From Enterobacteria phage GEC-3S, in the sequence record HE978309: DNA of 64,000 nt; one strand, given 5' to 3'. The notes beneath the pieces were generated by a model that ran no database searches, had not been told where the DNA came from, and worked only from the letters and a program-made list of their open reading frames with translations. Every line of letters begins with the position of its first letter. The stretch's first letter is position 1. This document shows positions 38,124-44,193 of this stretch, piece after piece. The position numbers and the translations under genes were made by a program.

Positions 38124-40367
38124 TTACAGCTTGCAAGATGAGCACTCGCTAGAGTCTTCCGTACCATCTGCACCGTCGCGAACGTTCGCATAATACAGGG
38201 TTTTCAGACCGTAATATTGAGCAAACAACATATCATCTAAAACATCAGCAATATCGACTTTACCCGTCTTATAAGTGCTTGGGTCGTAGGATGTATTGGA
38301 ACTAATCGCCTGGTCTACAAACTTCTGCATGATCGCTGCCAGTGTCAGATAAGGCTTGTTACCTTTCTTGATCAGTGTCCAAAGCAGGTCAATAACATCA
38401 GCATTATTCTCTACGTTCGGAATAACCTGATTAAATTGCCCTTCTTTCGATCCTTTAACCGATACAATCCCGCGAGGCGGTTCAATACCGTTTGTGCTGT
38501 TAGACACCTGAGAAGACGACTCACAAGGCATCAGCGCCGAAAGCGTACTGTTACGAATGCCATATTTTTTCAGGTCTTCGCGCAGTTCTTCCCAATCCAT
38601 CTCATACACCGGATCAACCAGTTCATCTACTGTCTTTTTGTACCAGTCGATAGGAAGTTCACCGCGACCATAGCGTGTTTCGTGCATCAGTTCGCAAGCA
38701 CCCTTCTCTTTTGCTAGCTGCACACTAGCTTTAATCAGAGCATATTGCAAGCGTTCAAACGTTTTATGCGTAAACTCGTTAGCGTCTTCATATGTGAAGA
38801 AATTATCTGCTAGATATGATGCAAAGTTAGTCACACCAACACCCAGAGAGCGACGTTTTTTGGCTGTCAGAGCTTGTTCTACAGGATAATCCTGGTAATC
38901 TAACAGGTTGTCAAGTGCACGCACCATAACCATAGCAATGCGTTCTACTTCTTCCATATTTTCGATATCAAAGTTTCCTAAAACATATGCTGCCAAAGTG
39001 CATAGGCTGATCTCTGAATCATCACGACCCATCGGTTTTGTAGGCAGAGCAATTTCACAACACAGGTTGGATTGTTTAATCGGTGCTACATTACGAATAA
39101 ACGCCCCGTGATTGTTCATGTTGTCTGTGAACGTTGGGTAGATTCGACCAGTGTTAAAACGTTCAATTGCCACCGCTAAAAACAGGTCTTCGGCTTTAAC
39201 ACGAGTTTTACGAACACTCGGATCTTTTTCCAGTTTTTCGTAAAGCTGGCGGAAACCTTCCTCATCTCGGAAGTATAGATCCCACAACAAGCCACCTGCA
39301 ACATCTGGACTAAACAGAGTAATGTAATCCCGTTTAAGGAATCGCTCTACCATCAGGTTATTAATCTGTACGCCGTAGTCAAGATGGCGAATGCGGTTAT
39401 CTTCCACGCCCTTATTGTTCTTTAACACAATCAGACTTTCAAACTCTAAATGCCACATTGGGTAATAGAGAGTCGCCGCCCCGCCACGAATACCGCCTTG
39501 TGAGCATGACTTAACGGCAGTCTGAAAATGTTTCCAGAATGGGATAACGCCAGTATGACGAACTTCACCATGCCCGATCTTAGATCCTTCCGCGCGAATC
39601 ATGCCAGCGTTGATACCGATACCCGCACGCTTGCTAATATACTTGATGATTGCATTTGCTGTTTCGTTGATGCCCTGCAATGAGTCATCACTTTCAATCA
39701 CCACACACGAACTAAATTGGCGTGTTGGGGTACGCACACCAGCCATAATCGGAGTAGGCAGAGAGATTTGCTTATTCGAAACAGCATTATAAAAATCAAT
39801 CACATGTTCAAGTCGATTTTCTGTCTCTTCTTGATGCAAGCACATACCGATCAGCATATACGCAAATTGCGGTGTTTCGATGATTTTCTTAGTGCTGCGA
39901 TCCTGAACAAGATATTTCTCTTTTAACTGCATCGCACCAGCATAGGTCATTTTAAAATCAAGTTTATGGTCGATGAATTTCTCCAGATATTCCACTTCTT
40001 CACGGGAATACTTTTGCAGAATTTCACGATCATATTTTCCGGTTGCAATATTACGCTCAATATGGCTGTAAAAATCAATCGGTTGGAATTGACCGTATAC
40101 TGATTTGCGAAGCGCGAACATTGCAAGGTTACTTGCTACATATTGATAATCGGGTGTTTCTACAGTAATGTTATCTGCTGCGACCTTAATCAATACTTTC
40201 TGGATATCATTGGTAGACATACCTTCTGTCAGAAGTGGTTCAACCATATCAAACAATTCATATGGATCAACGTTATGACCTTCGGCTGCCGCTTCCAGAA
40301 TTTTCATTACTTTTTCTTTTTCAAACGGAACAGTCAGACCGGAAGACTTAACAACATTTTTAATCAT
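38124..40367 (-). CDS. nrdA: Ribonucleotide reductase alpha subunit
   Basis: 747 aa; class Ia R1 features (ATP-cone N-terminus, NLCCEI, C-terminal CSSC); GTGAGG RBS. Confidence 0.95.
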   Translation of the reverse strand: MIKNVVKSSGLTVPFEKEKVMKILEAAAEGHNVDPYELFDMVEPLLTEGMSTNDIQKVLIKVAADNITVETPDYQYVASNLAMFALRKSVYGQFQPIDFYSHIERNIATGKYDREILQKYSREEVEYLEKFIDHKLDFKMTYAGAMQLKEKYLVQDRSTKKIIETPQFAYMLIGMCLHQEETENRLEHVIDFYNAVSNKQISLPTPIMAGVRTPTRQFSSCVVIESDDSLQGINETANAIIKYISKRAGIGINAGMIRAEGSKIGHGEVRHTGVIPFWKHFQTAVKSCSQGGIRGGAATLYYPMWHLEFESLIVLKNNKGVEDNRIRHLDYGVQINNLMVERFLKRDYITLFSPDVAGGLLWDLYFRDEEGFRQLYEKLEKDPSVRKTRVKAEDLFLAVAIERFNTGRIYPTFTDNMNNHGAFIRNVAPIKQSNLCCEIALPTKPMGRDDSEISLCTLAAYVLGNFDIENMEEVERIAMVMVRALDNLLDYQDYPVEQALTAKKRRSLGVGVTNFASYLADNFFTYEDANEFTHKTFERLQYALIKASVQLAKEKGACELMHETRYGRGELPIDWYKKTVDELVDPVYEMDWEELREDLKKYGIRNSTLSALMPCESSSQVSNSTNGIEPPRGIVSVKGSKEGQFNQVIPNVENNADVIDLLWTLIKKGNKPYLTLAAIMQKFVDQAISSNTSYDPSTYKTGKVDIADVLDDMLFAQYYGLKTLYYANVRDGADGTEDSSECSSCKL

Positions 40368-40413
40368 ATTACCTCACTTCATATTTTAGCAGGAACAAGT
40401 TTATCCTCCATAT

Positions 40414-40429
40414 TGGGGGCTTTCGCCCC
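40414..40429 (-). other. GC-rich stem-loop between td and nrdA (GGGGGC-TTTC-GCCCCC)
   Basis: Perfect 6-bp GC stem with tetraloop; same motif near 27652 and 52063. Confidence 0.4.
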
Positions 40430-40435
40430 CTTTGT

Positions 40436-41659
40436 TTATACTGCCATTTGAGCGGTGATCGCTGGATGGCTTTGATAGTTGTGAATTTTAAAATCTTTCG
40501 GAGTCTTTGTCAATACCTCATCTAAAGATTTAAATTCCGGCAACTCAATTGTTGGTTTATCAAACGGAACACGGCTTAACTGTTCCATAACTTGATCAAA
40601 ATGGTTTTTGTAAATGTGGCAATCCCCACACTGATAAACCAGTTCGCCAACTTCTAACCCGCAAATCTTCGCGATGATATGCGTTAACAGTGCATAGCTC
40701 GCTACGTTGAACGGATTCCCTAAAAAGAGATCATTCGAACGCATGAAAAATAAACAACTCAATTTGTTGTCGTTGGAAACATAAAACTGTACCATCGGAT
40801 GACATACACCTAACACAGCATTATGCGTTTCCTGTACGTTCCATGAATCAATGATAATACGACGACTATACGGATCATTCTTGATCATGTCAATAACTTT
40901 TTGTAACTGGTCTTCCCAAATCTTCGGGCGATAGACATATTCTTCATCGTCTTTAGTGCTTGATGTGTCTACGTCCATACTAACAAACATCGTGGTATCC
41001 GGTGCTATAATATCCCCACCCAGATAATCACTATCAAGCAGATAACCGAAATAACCATCATCTACCCATTCCTGGAATCCCCACAAGCAATATGCATCAT
41101 TAACAAAATTAGATTGAGTCTTCCAGTGGTCTGCTACCAGAATATAATCAAACTCTTCATAACGCATACCACGCCAGATAGCACATAAACGGTCTTCTGT
41201 GTCATTGGTTGGCGTAAAGTCTTCTACCCACGGGTGCTTAAATGTATGTGTATATTTGCTCTTAACGCGCTTAATTTTGATTTCACCATGTGGATGAATC
41301 GGTTTGCGTCGCCACGCCATACCATACATATTGCCGACATTATAACCATTGAATCGCAAGGGATTCTTTTCTTTCATATCAAGACAGTTGCCGCGCCAAA
41401 TATCAAAGGCTTCCTCGTCAAACTTGCCGCGTGTAATTTCCTGTAAGCGACGGCGGTCAAGTGATCCCTCCATAAACCATAGCAATTCGCCAATCACAGA
41501 GGCTGTAGCCATCTTTTTAGTGGTCAGTAATGGGAAACCCTTGCTTAAATCAATTCGCATCTCTGCGCCGAATTTAGAGAGCGTACCTACCCCCGTGCGG
41601 TCTTCACGAGGACAGCCATTATCAAGAACATCACGCAACAGTTTCAAATATTCTTTCAT
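40436..41659 (-). CDS. td: Thymidylate synthase with large internal insertion
   Basis: ThyA motifs (REDRTGVGT; FPLLTTKK; ELLWF; DPYSRRIII; CHPMVQFYV; FMRSNDLFLGNPFNVASYALL) in one 407-aa ORF; about 120 extra residues mid-protein. Confidence 0.9.
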   Translation of the reverse strand: MKEYLKLLRDVLDNGCPREDRTGVGTLSKFGAEMRIDLSKGFPLLTTKKMATASVIGELLWFMEGSLDRRRLQEITRGKFDEEAFDIWRGNCLDMKEKNPLRFNGYNVGNMYGMAWRRKPIHPHGEIKIKRVKSKYTHTFKHPWVEDFTPTNDTEDRLCAIWRGMRYEEFDYILVADHWKTQSNFVNDAYCLWGFQEWVDDGYFGYLLDSDYLGGDIIAPDTTMFVSMDVDTSSTKDDEEYVYRPKIWEDQLQKVIDMIKNDPYSRRIIIDSWNVQETHNAVLGVCHPMVQFYVSNDNKLSCLFFMRSNDLFLGNPFNVASYALLTHIIAKICGLEVGELVYQCGDCHIYKNHFDQVMEQLSRVPFDKPTIELPEFKSLDEVLTKTPKDFKIHNYQSHPAITAQMAV

Positions 41660-41900
41660 CCCACATCACCTTTTTCTTGTTGATTGCTTTCTTACGCAGT
41701 TTTGCTACTGTCTCGTCAATATCGATAAAGACAACGCCACGGTCGAATATAGTAGCAGGTCTTGAGATATCGCTATTTTCTTGCACAGGAAGCCATGATG
41801 CGCTCGCTTCATCATAGAGATATTGTAAACCGTAATAATCTACGGCTACTGCGTAGTTTTCACTGGTAGCCGTCCATAATTGAATAATACCGACTTTCAT
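41631..41900 (-). CDS. Hypothetical protein (89 aa)
   Basis: Internal ATG at 41900; 3' end overlaps td start. Confidence 0.45.
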   Translation of the reverse strand: MKVGIIQLWTATSENYAVAVDYYGLQYLYDEASASWLPVQENSDISRPATIFDRGVVFIDIDETVAKLRKKAINKKKVMWDERIFETVA

Positions 41901-41992
41901 TATTGTTCCCGTCCGCAATGTAAGCACCGACTACCAGCAAACATCAAAGATTCACCACAATGTTTGCACTCATAATCTGTAAGAATTTTCAT
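41900..41992 (-). CDS. Possible 30-aa zinc-ribbon peptide
   Basis: MKILTDYECKHCGESLMFAGSRCLHCGREQ; TAATG coupling to downstream gene; very short. Confidence 0.3.
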   Translation of the reverse strand: MKILTDYECKHCGESLMFAGSRCLHCGREQ

Positions 41993-41993
41993 G

Positions 41994-42563
41994 TTACGCC
42001 TTCTTACGTTCTAAAATTTGTTCGCTGATCAGGTAATTATCAAGGAAGTAATTATGTTCTTCTTTGGTTACAAAGTCAAAATACAATTCCTGAATCATTT
42101 CCTTAGAGATACCAACATCATATTCAAATGGATCGTTGATCCCTGAACGTTGAACATACGTTAACACAATACGGTCCGCAAAGTCAACCGCTTTTTCAAT
42201 CAGGGAAGGTCCGCCGATAACACTTACCAAACCTTGCGTTTTCTCCAGGACTTTTAACAGATCCTTTAATTCAATTCCAGTATACACATTAGGCTGGTCG
42301 CCGTTTTTGGCTTTCGGTGTCGGCTTGCTGGCATCGGTACTAATAACCACATTAAGACGACCTTCCAGTGCTTTAGGGAGACTTTCAAAGGTATTACGTC
42401 CCATTACAACCGCCGCAAGATCAACATCTCCCATAGTGCGCATTTTAAAGTTTTCCATGTCCTTTTTAATTGGACGCCCCCACGGTAAACCGCCTTTAAA
42501 ACCAAAAGACCATTTTTCATCTGACATTTTAGTGTCACCAATAGCAAATACACATTGAATCAT
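41994..42563 (-). CDS. frd: Dihydrofolate reductase
   Basis: 189 aa; DHFR-like pattern (GGLPW; VVMGRNTFESLP; VIGG); T4 position. Confidence 0.9.
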   Translation of the reverse strand: MIQCVFAIGDTKMSDEKWSFGFKGGLPWGRPIKKDMENFKMRTMGDVDLAAVVMGRNTFESLPKALEGRLNVVISTDASKPTPKAKNGDQPNVYTGIELKDLLKVLEKTQGLVSVIGGPSLIEKAVDFADRIVLTYVQRSGINDPFEYDVGISKEMIQELYFDFVTKEEHNYFLDNYLISEQILERKKA

Positions 42564-42578
42564 AATATAAATCTCCCA

Positions 42579-42908
42579 TCAAATCAGTTTGAAATAGTTT
42601 TCGTTTACATTTTCTTCTGTGATTGCTGTCTTAAATTCTTGACCGTTATCCGGTGTGATGAAATAACGGTCAGAATAATCACGAAAACGTTTTAAGTGAG
42701 ATACCCCAACATTAACACCATTTTCCCAAAAACGAAAGGTAATCATTTTTGGTTCATATCGATAGTCGCTGGTTAACACAGTACCATCACCGCGACGGGC
42801 TTCATAAACCGTAATACATTCACGATTAGCGGCTTTAAGGCATTCTTCAATAGTGCCGCATGAGATAATACTTACTTTTTCATCTACGATTTGTTCTACA
42901 GTCCACAT
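42579..42908 (-). CDS. Hypothetical protein (109 aa)
   Basis: Internal ATG at 42908 with GAGAGGA RBS downstream of own promoter. Confidence 0.5.
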   Translation of the reverse strand: MWTVEQIVDEKVSIISCGTIEECLKAANRECITVYEARRGDGTVLTSDYRYEPKMITFRFWENGVNVGVSHLKRFRDYSDRYFITPDNGQEFKTAITEENVNENYFKLI

Positions 42909-42939: not shown

Positions 42940-42968
42940 ATTATACACTATTGCGTTACGCTGTCAAC
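42940..42968 (-). promoter_or_regulatory. Sigma70-like early promoter
   Basis: TTGACA - 16 nt - TATAAT. Confidence 0.5.
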
Positions 42969-44134
42969 TCTTTTTCAAAAGATTTTACGATATACATGAT
43001 GGTGCTCAATTCGGACGGCGCTACTGTCTCTGTGTAGCCATCCGGCATATCTTCTTTCGAGATATAGGAAGTTTTACCTTTCATTGCTTCCTTGATTTTG
43101 TTCTCTAATTCTAAGATCTTTTGACCGTCTTGTAAAGTCAATTCATAAAAGATCTCATGATCGAACTTTGAAACACGAGATTGGTTTCTCATGCGCTCAT
43201 GTGTTTCTTTGTTTGTTATTCCAAATTTCACGCCAACAAAGGAATCATTGTTGGTTAATTTCTGTATATAAAGAGTTCCTGTCTTTAATGCCTGATAACC
43301 ATGCTTAGAACACAACGGGCAGCGTGTTCCGCGATTAACAAAATTATCAATAGTTACATCCCATTCATGGTTACGTTCGCATGTCAGAAGTATTCTTGTT
43401 AATGCACCTTTCCACTTTCCTGAAATCCCAATAAATTTTAGTCTGTTGGTTTCGCATATTTTTTCAATTTGTTTTAATCGGTCACTTTTTGTTATTGGTG
43501 CTGTTCCGCTACATTTGCGACACCGACGACCTAGTTTGAACTTATCATAACTTTGTTCGTAAATGTGATTATTAGGACACTCAAATTTAAGTTTAGTTTT
43601 TGTTCCTCTCCATTCCCCAATTATACCCAAAAATTTATAATCTCCTTTATTTTCATTTATATAAGATAAGGAATCTTCTTTATCATGCATCTTGCCCCCG
43701 TTACATAAAGGACATCTTGTTTTTTGATGAATGAAATCTGTATATGTTGGTTGGTATGTGTGTCCGTTTGTACAGTTCATAATGAGTCTTGTTCTGCTAT
43801 TTTTATACTCCCCACCAACAAAACCAACAAATACATCGTTTGTTTCTTGTTTTATTCTTTCTATCACATTGTTTGGGTTTAATCTTTGAGAATCAACCAC
43901 ACATTTCTTACACGAAACTTTTTTCCTGATATTTGCTAGAGTTGATGTGTATTCATGCTTGTTATTACATAATATAAGAGCTTTTGTTTTGAGACCAGAC
44001 CATTCTCCAACAAACCCCATGAAAGAATAACCAACTTCCAAACATGATTTTTTTACAACATTTTCCCAATAGAAGGGAGTTTTCGTGTTTCCTTTTATTT
44101 CTATACGAATCTCATGTGCTTGACGTACTAACAT
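42956..44134 (-). CDS. Four tandem Cys/His zinc-ribbon repeats plus C-terminal T5orf172/GIY-YIG-like domain
   Basis: Four ~45-aa repeats each with C..H...CxxC, then LYIQKL...FVGVKFGIT...R; ATG at 44134 with GGAGGAT RBS. Confidence 0.6.
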   Translation of the reverse strand: MLVRQAHEIRIEIKGNTKTPFYWENVVKKSCLEVGYSFMGFVGEWSGLKTKALILCNNKHEYTSTLANIRKKVSCKKCVVDSQRLNPNNVIERIKQETNDVFVGFVGGEYKNSRTRLIMNCTNGHTYQPTYTDFIHQKTRCPLCNGGKMHDKEDSLSYINENKGDYKFLGIIGEWRGTKTKLKFECPNNHIYEQSYDKFKLGRRCRKCSGTAPITKSDRLKQIEKICETNRLKFIGISGKWKGALTRILLTCERNHEWDVTIDNFVNRGTRCPLCSKHGYQALKTGTLYIQKLTNNDSFVGVKFGITNKETHERMRNQSRVSKFDHEIFYELTLQDGQKILELENKIKEAMKGKTSYISKEDMPDGYTETVAPSELSTIMYIVKSFEKELTA

Positions 44135-44164
44135 ATTTTTATCCTCCGTTGTTTCGATGATTGT

Positions 44165-44193
44165 ATTATACATTACCACATCAGCATGTCAAT
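44165..44193 (-). promoter_or_regulatory. Sigma70-like early promoter
   Basis: TTGACA - 16 nt - TATAAT. Confidence 0.5.

Follow-up and report, generated by a model that had tools for sequence, protein, structure and literature searches.

An in-frame insert in the thymidylate synthase of phage GEC-3S as a probable remnant of a homing-endonuclease-like element

The 64,000-nucleotide stretch of Enterobacteria phage GEC-3S (sequence record HE978309) that was analysed here as one window encodes the thymidylate synthase Td. With 407 amino acids (aa), this enzyme is considerably longer than its counterparts in T4 (286 aa) and Escherichia coli (264 aa), and most of the additional length resides in one in-frame insert. 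This insert probably goes back to a homing-endonuclease-like element that was inserted in frame and is not spliced out; in Td, a degenerate and immobilised remnant would be left, retained as a surface domain of an active-looking enzyme. The original prediction had described an in-frame insertion of about 120 aa in an otherwise colinear ThyA core, and had offered an added domain, a degenerate mobile insertion, or an intein-like element as its possible nature. Of these, the degenerate mobile insertion is best supported, and the insert is at the same time an added domain with a well-defined predicted fold.

In an alignment with E. coli ThyA, Td has 143 extra residues and no deletions. The majority of these residues (122, or 85%) lie between Td aa 121 and 248, and the other 21 are distributed over six small indels of 8, 1, 8, 1, 1, and 2 residues. 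The size of about 120 aa is therefore right relative to E. coli, while the complete block from after the WR motif to before the DQL motif comprises 132 aa (aa 118-249) with a mass of 15.8 kDa. It occupies the ThyA loop between YGMAWR and DQL, corresponding to E. coli residues ~100-109, which consists of only five residues (DFGGV) in T4 Td. Both motifs could be located in 118 sequences, including GEC-3S Td, from the best 120 database homologues of ThyA. Among these, the spacing from YG..WR to DQ(I/L) is bimodal: ordinary ThyAs have 5-34 aa here, those with an insert 127-274 aa, and GEC-3S Td 132 aa. Because 85% of the extra length lies in one block and the motif spacing is bimodal, the length of Td is not explained by many small scattered indels.

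The loop between these motifs is a natural indel hotspot, in which the ThyA of phage RaK2 has a spacing of 37 aa. The insert could accordingly be regarded as a lineage-specific elaboration of a variable loop, unrelated to mobile elements, as in the thymidylate synthases of Lactobacillus casei and eukaryotes; other lineages of the enzyme have inserts of their own, and the L. casei enzyme reaches 316 aa. This explanation is very unlikely, as the length at the site is bimodal instead of graded and as the insert has significant sequence and structure similarity to inserts in other phage ThyAs and to free-standing endonuclease-like proteins (see below). The extra segment of the L. casei enzyme is presumably located upstream of YG.QWR, at a site other than that of the Td insert; by the alignment, it lies somewhere between chain residues ~90 and 162.

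The td open reading frame (ORF) is continuous, without internal stop codon or frame break. It is flanked by frd, encoding dihydrofolate reductase (41994..42563), and nrdA (38124..40367), with a small overlapping ORF upstream. The order frd-td-nrdA is of the T4 type and is likewise annotated in RB49. GEC-3S is a Krischvirus of the RB49/JSE type, and its td has nucleotide identities of 99.4% to ELT3, 98.6% to JSE, and ~91% to RB49 and Phi1. The same uninterrupted ORF, insert included, is present in 57 Krischvirus records with 80-99% nucleotide identity and is labelled td or thymidylate synthase in most of those listed. Loci from IMG/VR added only two further Krischvirus copies.

On both sides of the insert, the ThyA core is complete, as predicted. 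Pfam PF00303 matches Td with 1.9e-83 and 280 bits (cut-off 24.3) in two colinear pieces, and NCBIfam TIGR03284 with 278 bits (cut-off 108). Profiles from Pfam, NCBIfam, and PDB match aa 1 to ~88-117 and then aa 250-407, the latter aligning to E. coli residues 110-264 in the PDB alignments. Every catalytic residue is kept, namely R21, E58, W88, Y112, R117, D250, R266, R267, C286, H287, Q291, R307, S308, D310, N318, H348, and Y350. C286 is the catalytic cysteine (E. coli C146), and R21, E58, Y112, and R266/R267 correspond to E. coli R21, E58, Y94, and R126/R127. R307, S308, D310, N318, H348, and Y350 correspond to E. coli R166, S167, D169, N177, H207, and Y209. Apart from the catalytic cysteine, all of these E. 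coli residues are involved in binding deoxyuridine monophosphate (dUMP) or folate. Together with the frd-td-nrdA context, this conservation suggests that Td converts dUMP into deoxythymidine monophosphate (dTMP), and for annotation td stays a thymidylate synthase gene.

A full-length AlphaFold2 model of Td, for which a 40-sequence alignment was used, has a mean predicted local distance difference test score (pLDDT) of 95.1 and a predicted template modelling score of 0.92, with pLDDT values of 89-98 throughout the insert. When modelled alone, the insert has the same fold (pLDDT 95.1). In the model, aa 118-130 and aa 241-250 form a long two-stranded beta ribbon leading out of and back into the ThyA core; the two strands were taken as antiparallel, and their pairing is assumed. 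The tip (aa ~147-238) is predicted to consist of four helices and a beta hairpin. According to the model, the insert is a discrete folded domain on a stalk and not a disordered loop, which agrees with the added domain that had been considered.

An artefact of annotation or assembly, in which a sequencing error had joined two genes, or one gene and a fragment of a pseudogene, is of negligible probability, with nothing but the odd length in its favour. The ORF is uninterrupted in the 57 independently sequenced phages, with their divergence of up to 20%, as well as in metagenomic contigs, and the substitutions in td are predominantly synonymous; therefore, the insert is not an artefact. The base composition over the insert is not distinctive.

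The insertion is also not a group I intron as found in T4 td, in accordance with the original prediction. The reading frame is continuous, a search of 39500-42600 against Rfam yielded no group I intron with E-values of up to 1 allowed, and the intron site of T4 td (VFLG/LPFN) corresponds to Td aa ~314, which is ~65 aa downstream of the insert. This candidate was rejected. The intein-like nature was rejected as well. A mini-intein or similar protein-splicing element would remove the 132-aa block post-translationally and leave an ordinary ThyA of ~275 aa. A length of ~130 aa fits the size of mini-inteins, the insert is in frame in a conserved enzyme of nucleotide metabolism, and phage thymidylate synthases of the ThyX type are known from the literature on actinobacteriophages to carry inteins. 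Nevertheless, a mini-intein is extremely improbable: the junctions WR/RKPIHPHG and RPKIWE/DQL have no Cys, Ser, or Thr nucleophile at position 1 or +1, the insert has no terminal His-Asn, Pfam detected no Hint or intein domain in Td or in the insert, and there are no inteins among the structural neighbours of the insert. Furthermore, the insert termini are modelled as a beta ribbon continuous with the ThyA core, and the insert is homologous to free-standing proteins that are not inteins.

The origin of the insert is indicated by its relatives. Searched alone, it has no Pfam match and only a weak match to phrog_2081, a PHROG named 'HNH endonuclease' (E 0.07). A search of a word-indexed protein database gave no match because at such low similarity no 5-mers are shared. 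By tblastn against cultured phages, matches outside Krischvirus were obtained in two places, the thyA genes of the Klebsiella jumbo phages KP13-7 and phiKp_21 (E 1e-11) and a gene of Vibrio phage D69 for a 477-aa protein annotated as 'HNH endonuclease' (E 1e-7). The KP13-7 and D69 proteins belong to the ThyA family and have inserts of ~195-245 aa at the same site as Td. These inserts match phrog_2081 with 1.3e-32 and 8.4e-20 and phrog_953 with 2e-24 and 4.1e-23, respectively, and long ThyA inserts match the 'HNH endonuclease' phrog_374 with 2.5e-19. The phage homing-endonuclease-like proteins of PHROGs 2081, 953, and 374 are referred to here as the A-B-C family. Through the KP13-7 and D69 inserts, the sequence similarity of the Td insert to this family is clear. 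In addition, the Foldseek neighbours of the insert in BFVD comprise a 564-aa 'thymidylate synthase', free-standing phage proteins, and 'homing endonucleases' of Bacillus phages, with E-values from 1e-5 to 8e-4.

In a database search with the full protein, ~35 long ThyAs (401-613 aa) were among the top 120 matches. Complete inserts at this site have 180-275 aa and occur in many phages. Their alignment has five parts: a linker with the motif P.HG..IKR, the beta-rich module A, module B with the motif W..M..RCY...Y..Y.GV.VC.RW..F.NF..D ... LDKDY.G..YS..TC.F....N, the NUMOD/helix-turn-helix (HTH)-like module C, and a strand with the motif V.RP.I..DQL rejoining the ThyA core. The Td insert contains the linker, module B with an internal deletion, and the rejoin strand, and it lacks modules A and C. 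One of the long ThyA inserts scores above the Pfam gathering score for an I-HmuI_NUMOD-like domain.

An exhaustive search with a profile built from 27 aligned ThyA inserts matched 44,610 cluster representatives at E<=1e-3 and 7,004 at E<=1e-10. The top 148 new matches consist of 77 ThyAs (mostly 505-594 aa) and 71 other proteins. The latter include free-standing proteins of 175-300 aa with modules A and B, some of them with module C, as well as tandem duplications. Others are proteins of 560-720 aa, whose C-terminal repeats are AP2-like by eye; Pfam found no AP2 domain in them. The layout of these proteins is that of phage homing-endonuclease-like genes. Members of the A-B-C family are found in 798 cultured-phage records, where they are annotated as HNH endonuclease, HTH homing endonuclease, AP2 domain protein, or hypothetical protein. 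The 64-kb window itself does not encode a free-standing paralogue of the module. A metagenomic 557-aa protein that is not a ThyA (P0156) contains the module internally (aa ~67-277), with regions on its N- and C-terminal sides that are unrelated, and may be another host protein with an endonuclease-like module in frame.

The name 'HNH' is not adopted here for the A-B-C family. Neither Pfam nor NCBIfam detected a nuclease domain in the Td insert or in free-standing members, and Pfam found no HNH domain in the Td insert, in long inserts, or in free-standing members. A profile search of PDB sequences with the insert alignment gave no match at E<=10. The conserved hairpin motif is DKD in the family and DSD in Td, and is thus not the histidine-containing HNH motif. 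The comparison of the insert profile with a canonical HNH enzyme by hhalign yielded a probability of 0.07%, and with no relation to canonical HNH enzymes apparent, the name is not endorsed. For the A-B-C family as a whole, neither a Pfam model nor a structurally solved or characterised member was found.

The annotation of phage genomes is affected by these inserts. Several cultured-phage records label long-insert ThyAs as 'hypothetical protein', for example in ph0011 (locus L025, 924..2564) and phiKp_21 (locus L003, 2455..4008), and those of the Vibrio D-series are labelled 'HNH endonuclease'; this systematic mis- or under-annotation is due to the insert. The D69 protein (locus L002, 3644..5077) is a diverged member of the ThyA family. 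As RY replaces the phosphate-binding pair RR and further changes are found in the core, this protein is possibly not a standard dTMP synthase. In D69-type phages, a DNA search gave four matching places per genome, which suggests that they hold additional copies of the module.

Evidence for mobility comes from the complete inserts of other phages. In a tree of ThyA cores, Td is placed in a clade whose members all have the insert, and further ThyAs with an insert are dispersed among those without one; for 20 of the 73 insert-bearing ThyAs, the nearest core relative is insert-free. The thyA locus of Alcyoneusvirus has three allelic states. KP13-7 and phiKp_21 encode a 517-aa ThyA with the in-frame cassette. 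RaK2, K64-1, and Muenster have no cassette, which was confirmed by the 309-aa ThyA of RaK2 and is deduced for the others from the shorter locus. In RCIP0023 and W12-3, the locus is ~400 nucleotides (nt) longer; W12-3 is unannotated, and in the annotation of RCIP0023 an intron-like sequence encoding 'intron-associated endonuclease 1' interrupts thyA (locus L022, 756..2713) behind '...SCILTQR', at a point close to the intron site of T4 td.

Sliding-window comparisons revealed a mosaic structure of these loci. Between KP13-7 and RaK2, which belong to the same genus, the flanks are 100% and 92% identical and thyA aa 1-80 are 75-98% identical, whereas identity drops to 44-64% for aa 81-434. Compared with UE-S1, an Asteriusvirus, KP13-7 has flanks with only 68% and 61% identity and 70-85% identity in thyA aa 1-80, whereas aa 61-414 are 82-95% identical. 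Among 48 Asteriusvirus records, UE-S1 is the only one with this cassette. In ~20 of its relatives, the flanks are 94% identical, the site is empty, and the locus is 624 nt shorter. Another Asteriusvirus, ph0011, has a different cassette (546-aa ThyA, identical to P0017) between the same host-type thyA ends. By these comparisons, the long insert together with ~35 upstream and ~65 downstream thyA codons behaves as a mobile cassette common to two genera, and the mosaic pattern appears to be that produced by homing with co-conversion. Presence or absence at a fixed site, co-conversion of the flanks, and sharing across lineages are all found for the long cassettes in Alcyoneusvirus and Asteriusvirus. 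Within Krischvirus, there is no polymorphism of presence and absence, as all 57 genomes carry the short form.

In GEC-3S, a recombinant tract lies inside the C-terminal core of td (aa ~257-356, 40592..40891, minus strand) and begins just downstream of the insert. Compared with RB49-type td, it has 12-30 mismatches per 60 nt, whereas 0-6 are found elsewhere, except for a bin of 17 containing the 12-nt SEYN indel. The synonymous divergence (dS) in the tract is 0.8-1.0, compared with 0.05-0.19 elsewhere. Phage KFS-EC has the same allele; in GoldenSnicker, the switch occurs 60 nt further on. Within the tract lie the catalytic cysteine and the MRSNDLFLGNPFN segment (QRSVDSFLGLPFN in RB49), where T4 td has its intron and the I-TevI target, and the tract is similar to the one that is co-converted downstream in the jumbo-phage cassettes.

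The Krischvirus copy differs from these cassettes in several respects. A column-by-column comparison showed that the Td insert keeps the fold-defining and hydrophobic positions W162, M165, V175, W179, F185, D188, D209, D211, and T222. Most conserved polar and cysteine positions are replaced: RCY of the family is EEF in Td, the Tyr following RCY is deleted, VC is VA, DKD is DSD, YS..TC is IA..TT, and the Asn is Asp. In long ThyA inserts, most of these positions are conserved at 0.76-0.99, with the Cys of VC at only 0.41, and at nearly all of them conservation is equal to or higher than in the free-standing proteins. With modules A and C gone and the residue set W(H/C), RCY, VC, DKD, YS..TC, and N incomplete, the Td insert is to be regarded as a derived remnant and not as a full member of the A-B-C family. 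Its tip domain has a net charge of -15 and an isoelectric point (pI) of 4.1, compared with a mean pI of 7.2 for module B in free-standing proteins and 7.9 in long inserts. Due to the residue losses and the strong acidity, the Krischvirus domain is unlikely to bind DNA or to be catalytic; its nuclease or DNA-binding activity and its mobility have most probably been lost.

Despite these losses, the insert is under purifying selection. Among ten Krischvirus td genes, the ratio of nonsynonymous to synonymous substitution rates (dN/dS) is 0.22-0.24 (~0.23) for the insert, 0.04 for the N-terminal core, and 0.09-0.15 for the C-terminal core, based on 1-8 nonsynonymous substitutions per pair. A 4-aa indel (SEYN) is present or absent among Krischviruses at ~41147, after Td aa 171, where the RCYNP....Y segment was lost. 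Related short forms (P0003-P0006), whose inserts are 39-55% identical, occur in other T4-like genomes, one of them on a 169-kb T4-like contig with frd-td-nrdA-nrdB synteny.

This selection would also be expected if the short acidic domain had been exapted for an accessory function, for example by docking Td to partners in the complex synthesising deoxyribonucleoside triphosphates, or by regulating the activity of Td or its own expression. Its occurrence in all 57 Krischvirus records found and in the diverged forms P0003-P0006, the very confident compact fold of the model, and the shift to an acidic surface, which looks directional and not like random decay, are in line with such a function. 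On the other hand, there is no evidence of a partner or an activity, the enzyme core is under selection 3-6 times stronger than the domain, the SEYN indel is polymorphic inside the domain, and T4 and most T4-like phages manage without it. In addition, any folded domain within an essential enzyme is expected to be constrained. Overall, exaptation is rather unlikely, though more probable than the splicing or artefact explanations.

The interpretation of the Td insert as an immobilised remnant of a homing-endonuclease-like element also has to face several opposing points. No biochemically characterised member of the A-B-C family was found, and the case for endonuclease-driven homing consists of distribution and mosaicism, which could also have arisen by ordinary homologous recombination between co-infecting phages. 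Moreover, the dN/dS values are derived from few substitutions, and purifying selection as well as the strict conservation in Krischvirus fit an acquired function equally well as a tolerated relic.

If the remnant interpretation is correct, the history of the insert would have started with a member of the A-B-C family inserting in frame into the permissive ThyA loop. The complete element of 180-275 aa would have been translated within ThyA, projecting from the enzyme on its two-stranded stalk, and as an unspliced cassette it would have spread among phage thyA genes, dragging adjacent thyA sequence along. Since the free-standing proteins, which are by far the larger group, have the same complete architecture as the long form, this form is considered ancestral; we infer that modules A and C were deleted and module B was shortened in an ancestor of Krischvirus and its allies. 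In the Krischvirus lineage, the conserved Cys, Lys, Asn, and Tyr positions would then have been replaced, and the domain would have turned very acidic and become fixed. The relic may have been kept either because its misfolding would harm an essential enzyme or because it acquired a secondary role, two possibilities that the data do not separate.

Homing endonuclease genes are thought to need an intron, an intein, or an intergenic site in order to spare the genes they invade. A third solution, the in-frame insertion into a permissive surface loop with the element kept in the mature protein, is apparently widespread in phages, with at least 77 insert-bearing ThyA cluster representatives among the top 148 profile matches. 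More tentatively, and with somewhat less than even confidence, a class of unspliced phage mobile elements can be proposed, in which the module would invade the thyA loop in frame, work as a domain of the enzyme, and spread by cleavage and repair with co-conversion; Krischvirus would represent its end state, immobilised, reduced, and possibly domesticated. Such a class appears to be undescribed so far. If true, this would be a new mode in the life cycle of homing elements and would account for many phage thyA genes annotated as 'HNH endonuclease' or 'hypothetical'. The series from active cassettes (KP13-7, UE-S1, ph0011) to the reduced relic of Krischvirus would then be a natural system for the domestication of selfish domains, and the ThyA loop, with its room for inserts of 130-275 aa, would be useful in protein engineering.

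The insert is not mentioned in the literature on actinobacteriophage ThyX inteins, T4 mobile elements, five T4-like genomes including RB49, or Felix O1. No paper describing the RB49-type td insert or the thyA cassettes was found in a literature coverage that is incomplete, so that an earlier description is possible. Vibrio phage pVa5, for which a 'td split by an HNH endonuclease' has been published (PMC5746245), is an unrelated case because it involves a ThyX, a true intron, and a canonical HNH enzyme.

The coordinates of td and its parts are listed in Table 1. Two further observations were made in the window. Upstream of frd, another 407-aa ORF (42956..44179, minus strand) encodes four CapR-homology-domain repeats (PF21817, 9.2e-30) and a treble-clef zinc finger (DUF4379), and by eye its C-terminal ~110 aa are a candidate T5orf172/GIY-YIG-like segment; its RB49 counterpart is ORF239c, which is annotated as hypothetical. 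Inside nrdA, 39822..39933 (minus strand) has a sub-threshold Rfam match to 5.8S rRNA (18.8 bits vs a gathering score of 42, E 0.06), which is almost certainly due to chance.

Table 1. Location of td, its ThyA core, and the insert in the GEC-3S window
Feature	Coordinates	Strand	Evidence
td/thyA ORF, thymidylate synthase with internal insert (407 aa + stop)	40436..41659	minus	ORF list, PF00303, TIGR03284, annotation of relatives
N-terminal ThyA core, aa 1-117, ending with YGMAWR	41309..41659	minus	PDB and Pfam alignments, R21/E58/W88/Y112/R117
In-frame insert, aa 118-249	40913..41308	minus	extra residues vs E. coli, bimodal spacing, tblastn, AlphaFold2, dN/dS
Ascending strand and linker, aa 118-146, net +6, pI 10.4, 'P.HG..IKR' linker	41222..41308	minus	modelled strand E118-130; linker in insert-bearing ThyAs
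Tip domain, aa 147-238, reduced module B, predicted four helices and beta hairpin, net -15, pI 4.1	40946..41221	minus	
Descending stalk strand, aa 239-249 (EEYVYRPKIWE), 'V.RP.I' rejoin motif	40913..40945	minus	modelled strand E241-250; motif common to family
C-terminal ThyA core, aa 250-407 + stop, DPYSRR (R266/R267), RSND/N318/H348/Y350	40436..40912	minus	PDB alignments, residue mapping
Catalytic Cys286 codon	40802..40804	minus	within C-terminal ThyA core

Among known systems, inteins with homing endonucleases share several features with the ThyA insert. They are selfish in-frame insertions at a conserved site of essential enzymes of nucleotide metabolism, they occur sporadically among close relatives, and they spread with co-conversion of the flanks. 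Mini-inteins represent a shortened, immobile state, as does the Td insert. In contrast to inteins, the ThyA insert has no Hint domain, no junction nucleophiles, and no splicing, and remains part of the mature enzyme, from which it protrudes as a domain; it is tolerated because it is located in a surface loop and not because it is excised.

In fungal mitochondria, rps3 has been reported to be fused in frame to a LAGLIDADG homing-endonuclease sequence (PMC7902536, citing Gibb and Hausner 2005). The endonuclease sequence is likewise placed directly in the host coding sequence without intron or intein. The endonuclease family, the gene, and the biology are different, and the ThyA insert lies inside a catalytic domain, in one fixed loop, in phages, and in Td as a reduced remnant.

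The group I intron of T4 td with the GIY-YIG enzyme I-TevI and the thyA intron of RCIP0023 are homing-type elements in the same host gene of related phages. The T4 intron is located ~65 codons further downstream, is removed at the RNA level, and encodes a free-reading GIY-YIG enzyme. The free-standing HNH, HTH homing endonuclease, and AP2 proteins of PHROGs 2081, 953, and 374 belong to the sequence family of the insert and have modules A and B, some of them also C. Unlike the insert, they are encoded by separate genes, often with extra C-terminal DNA-binding repeats, whereas the Td copy has lost A, C, and most of the conserved polar and cysteine residues. Finally, the thymidylate synthases of L. 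casei and eukaryotes demonstrate that ThyA tolerates surface segments without loss of its catalytic core; their segments have 8-50 aa and are unrelated to proteins of mobile elements, in contrast to the insert of Td.

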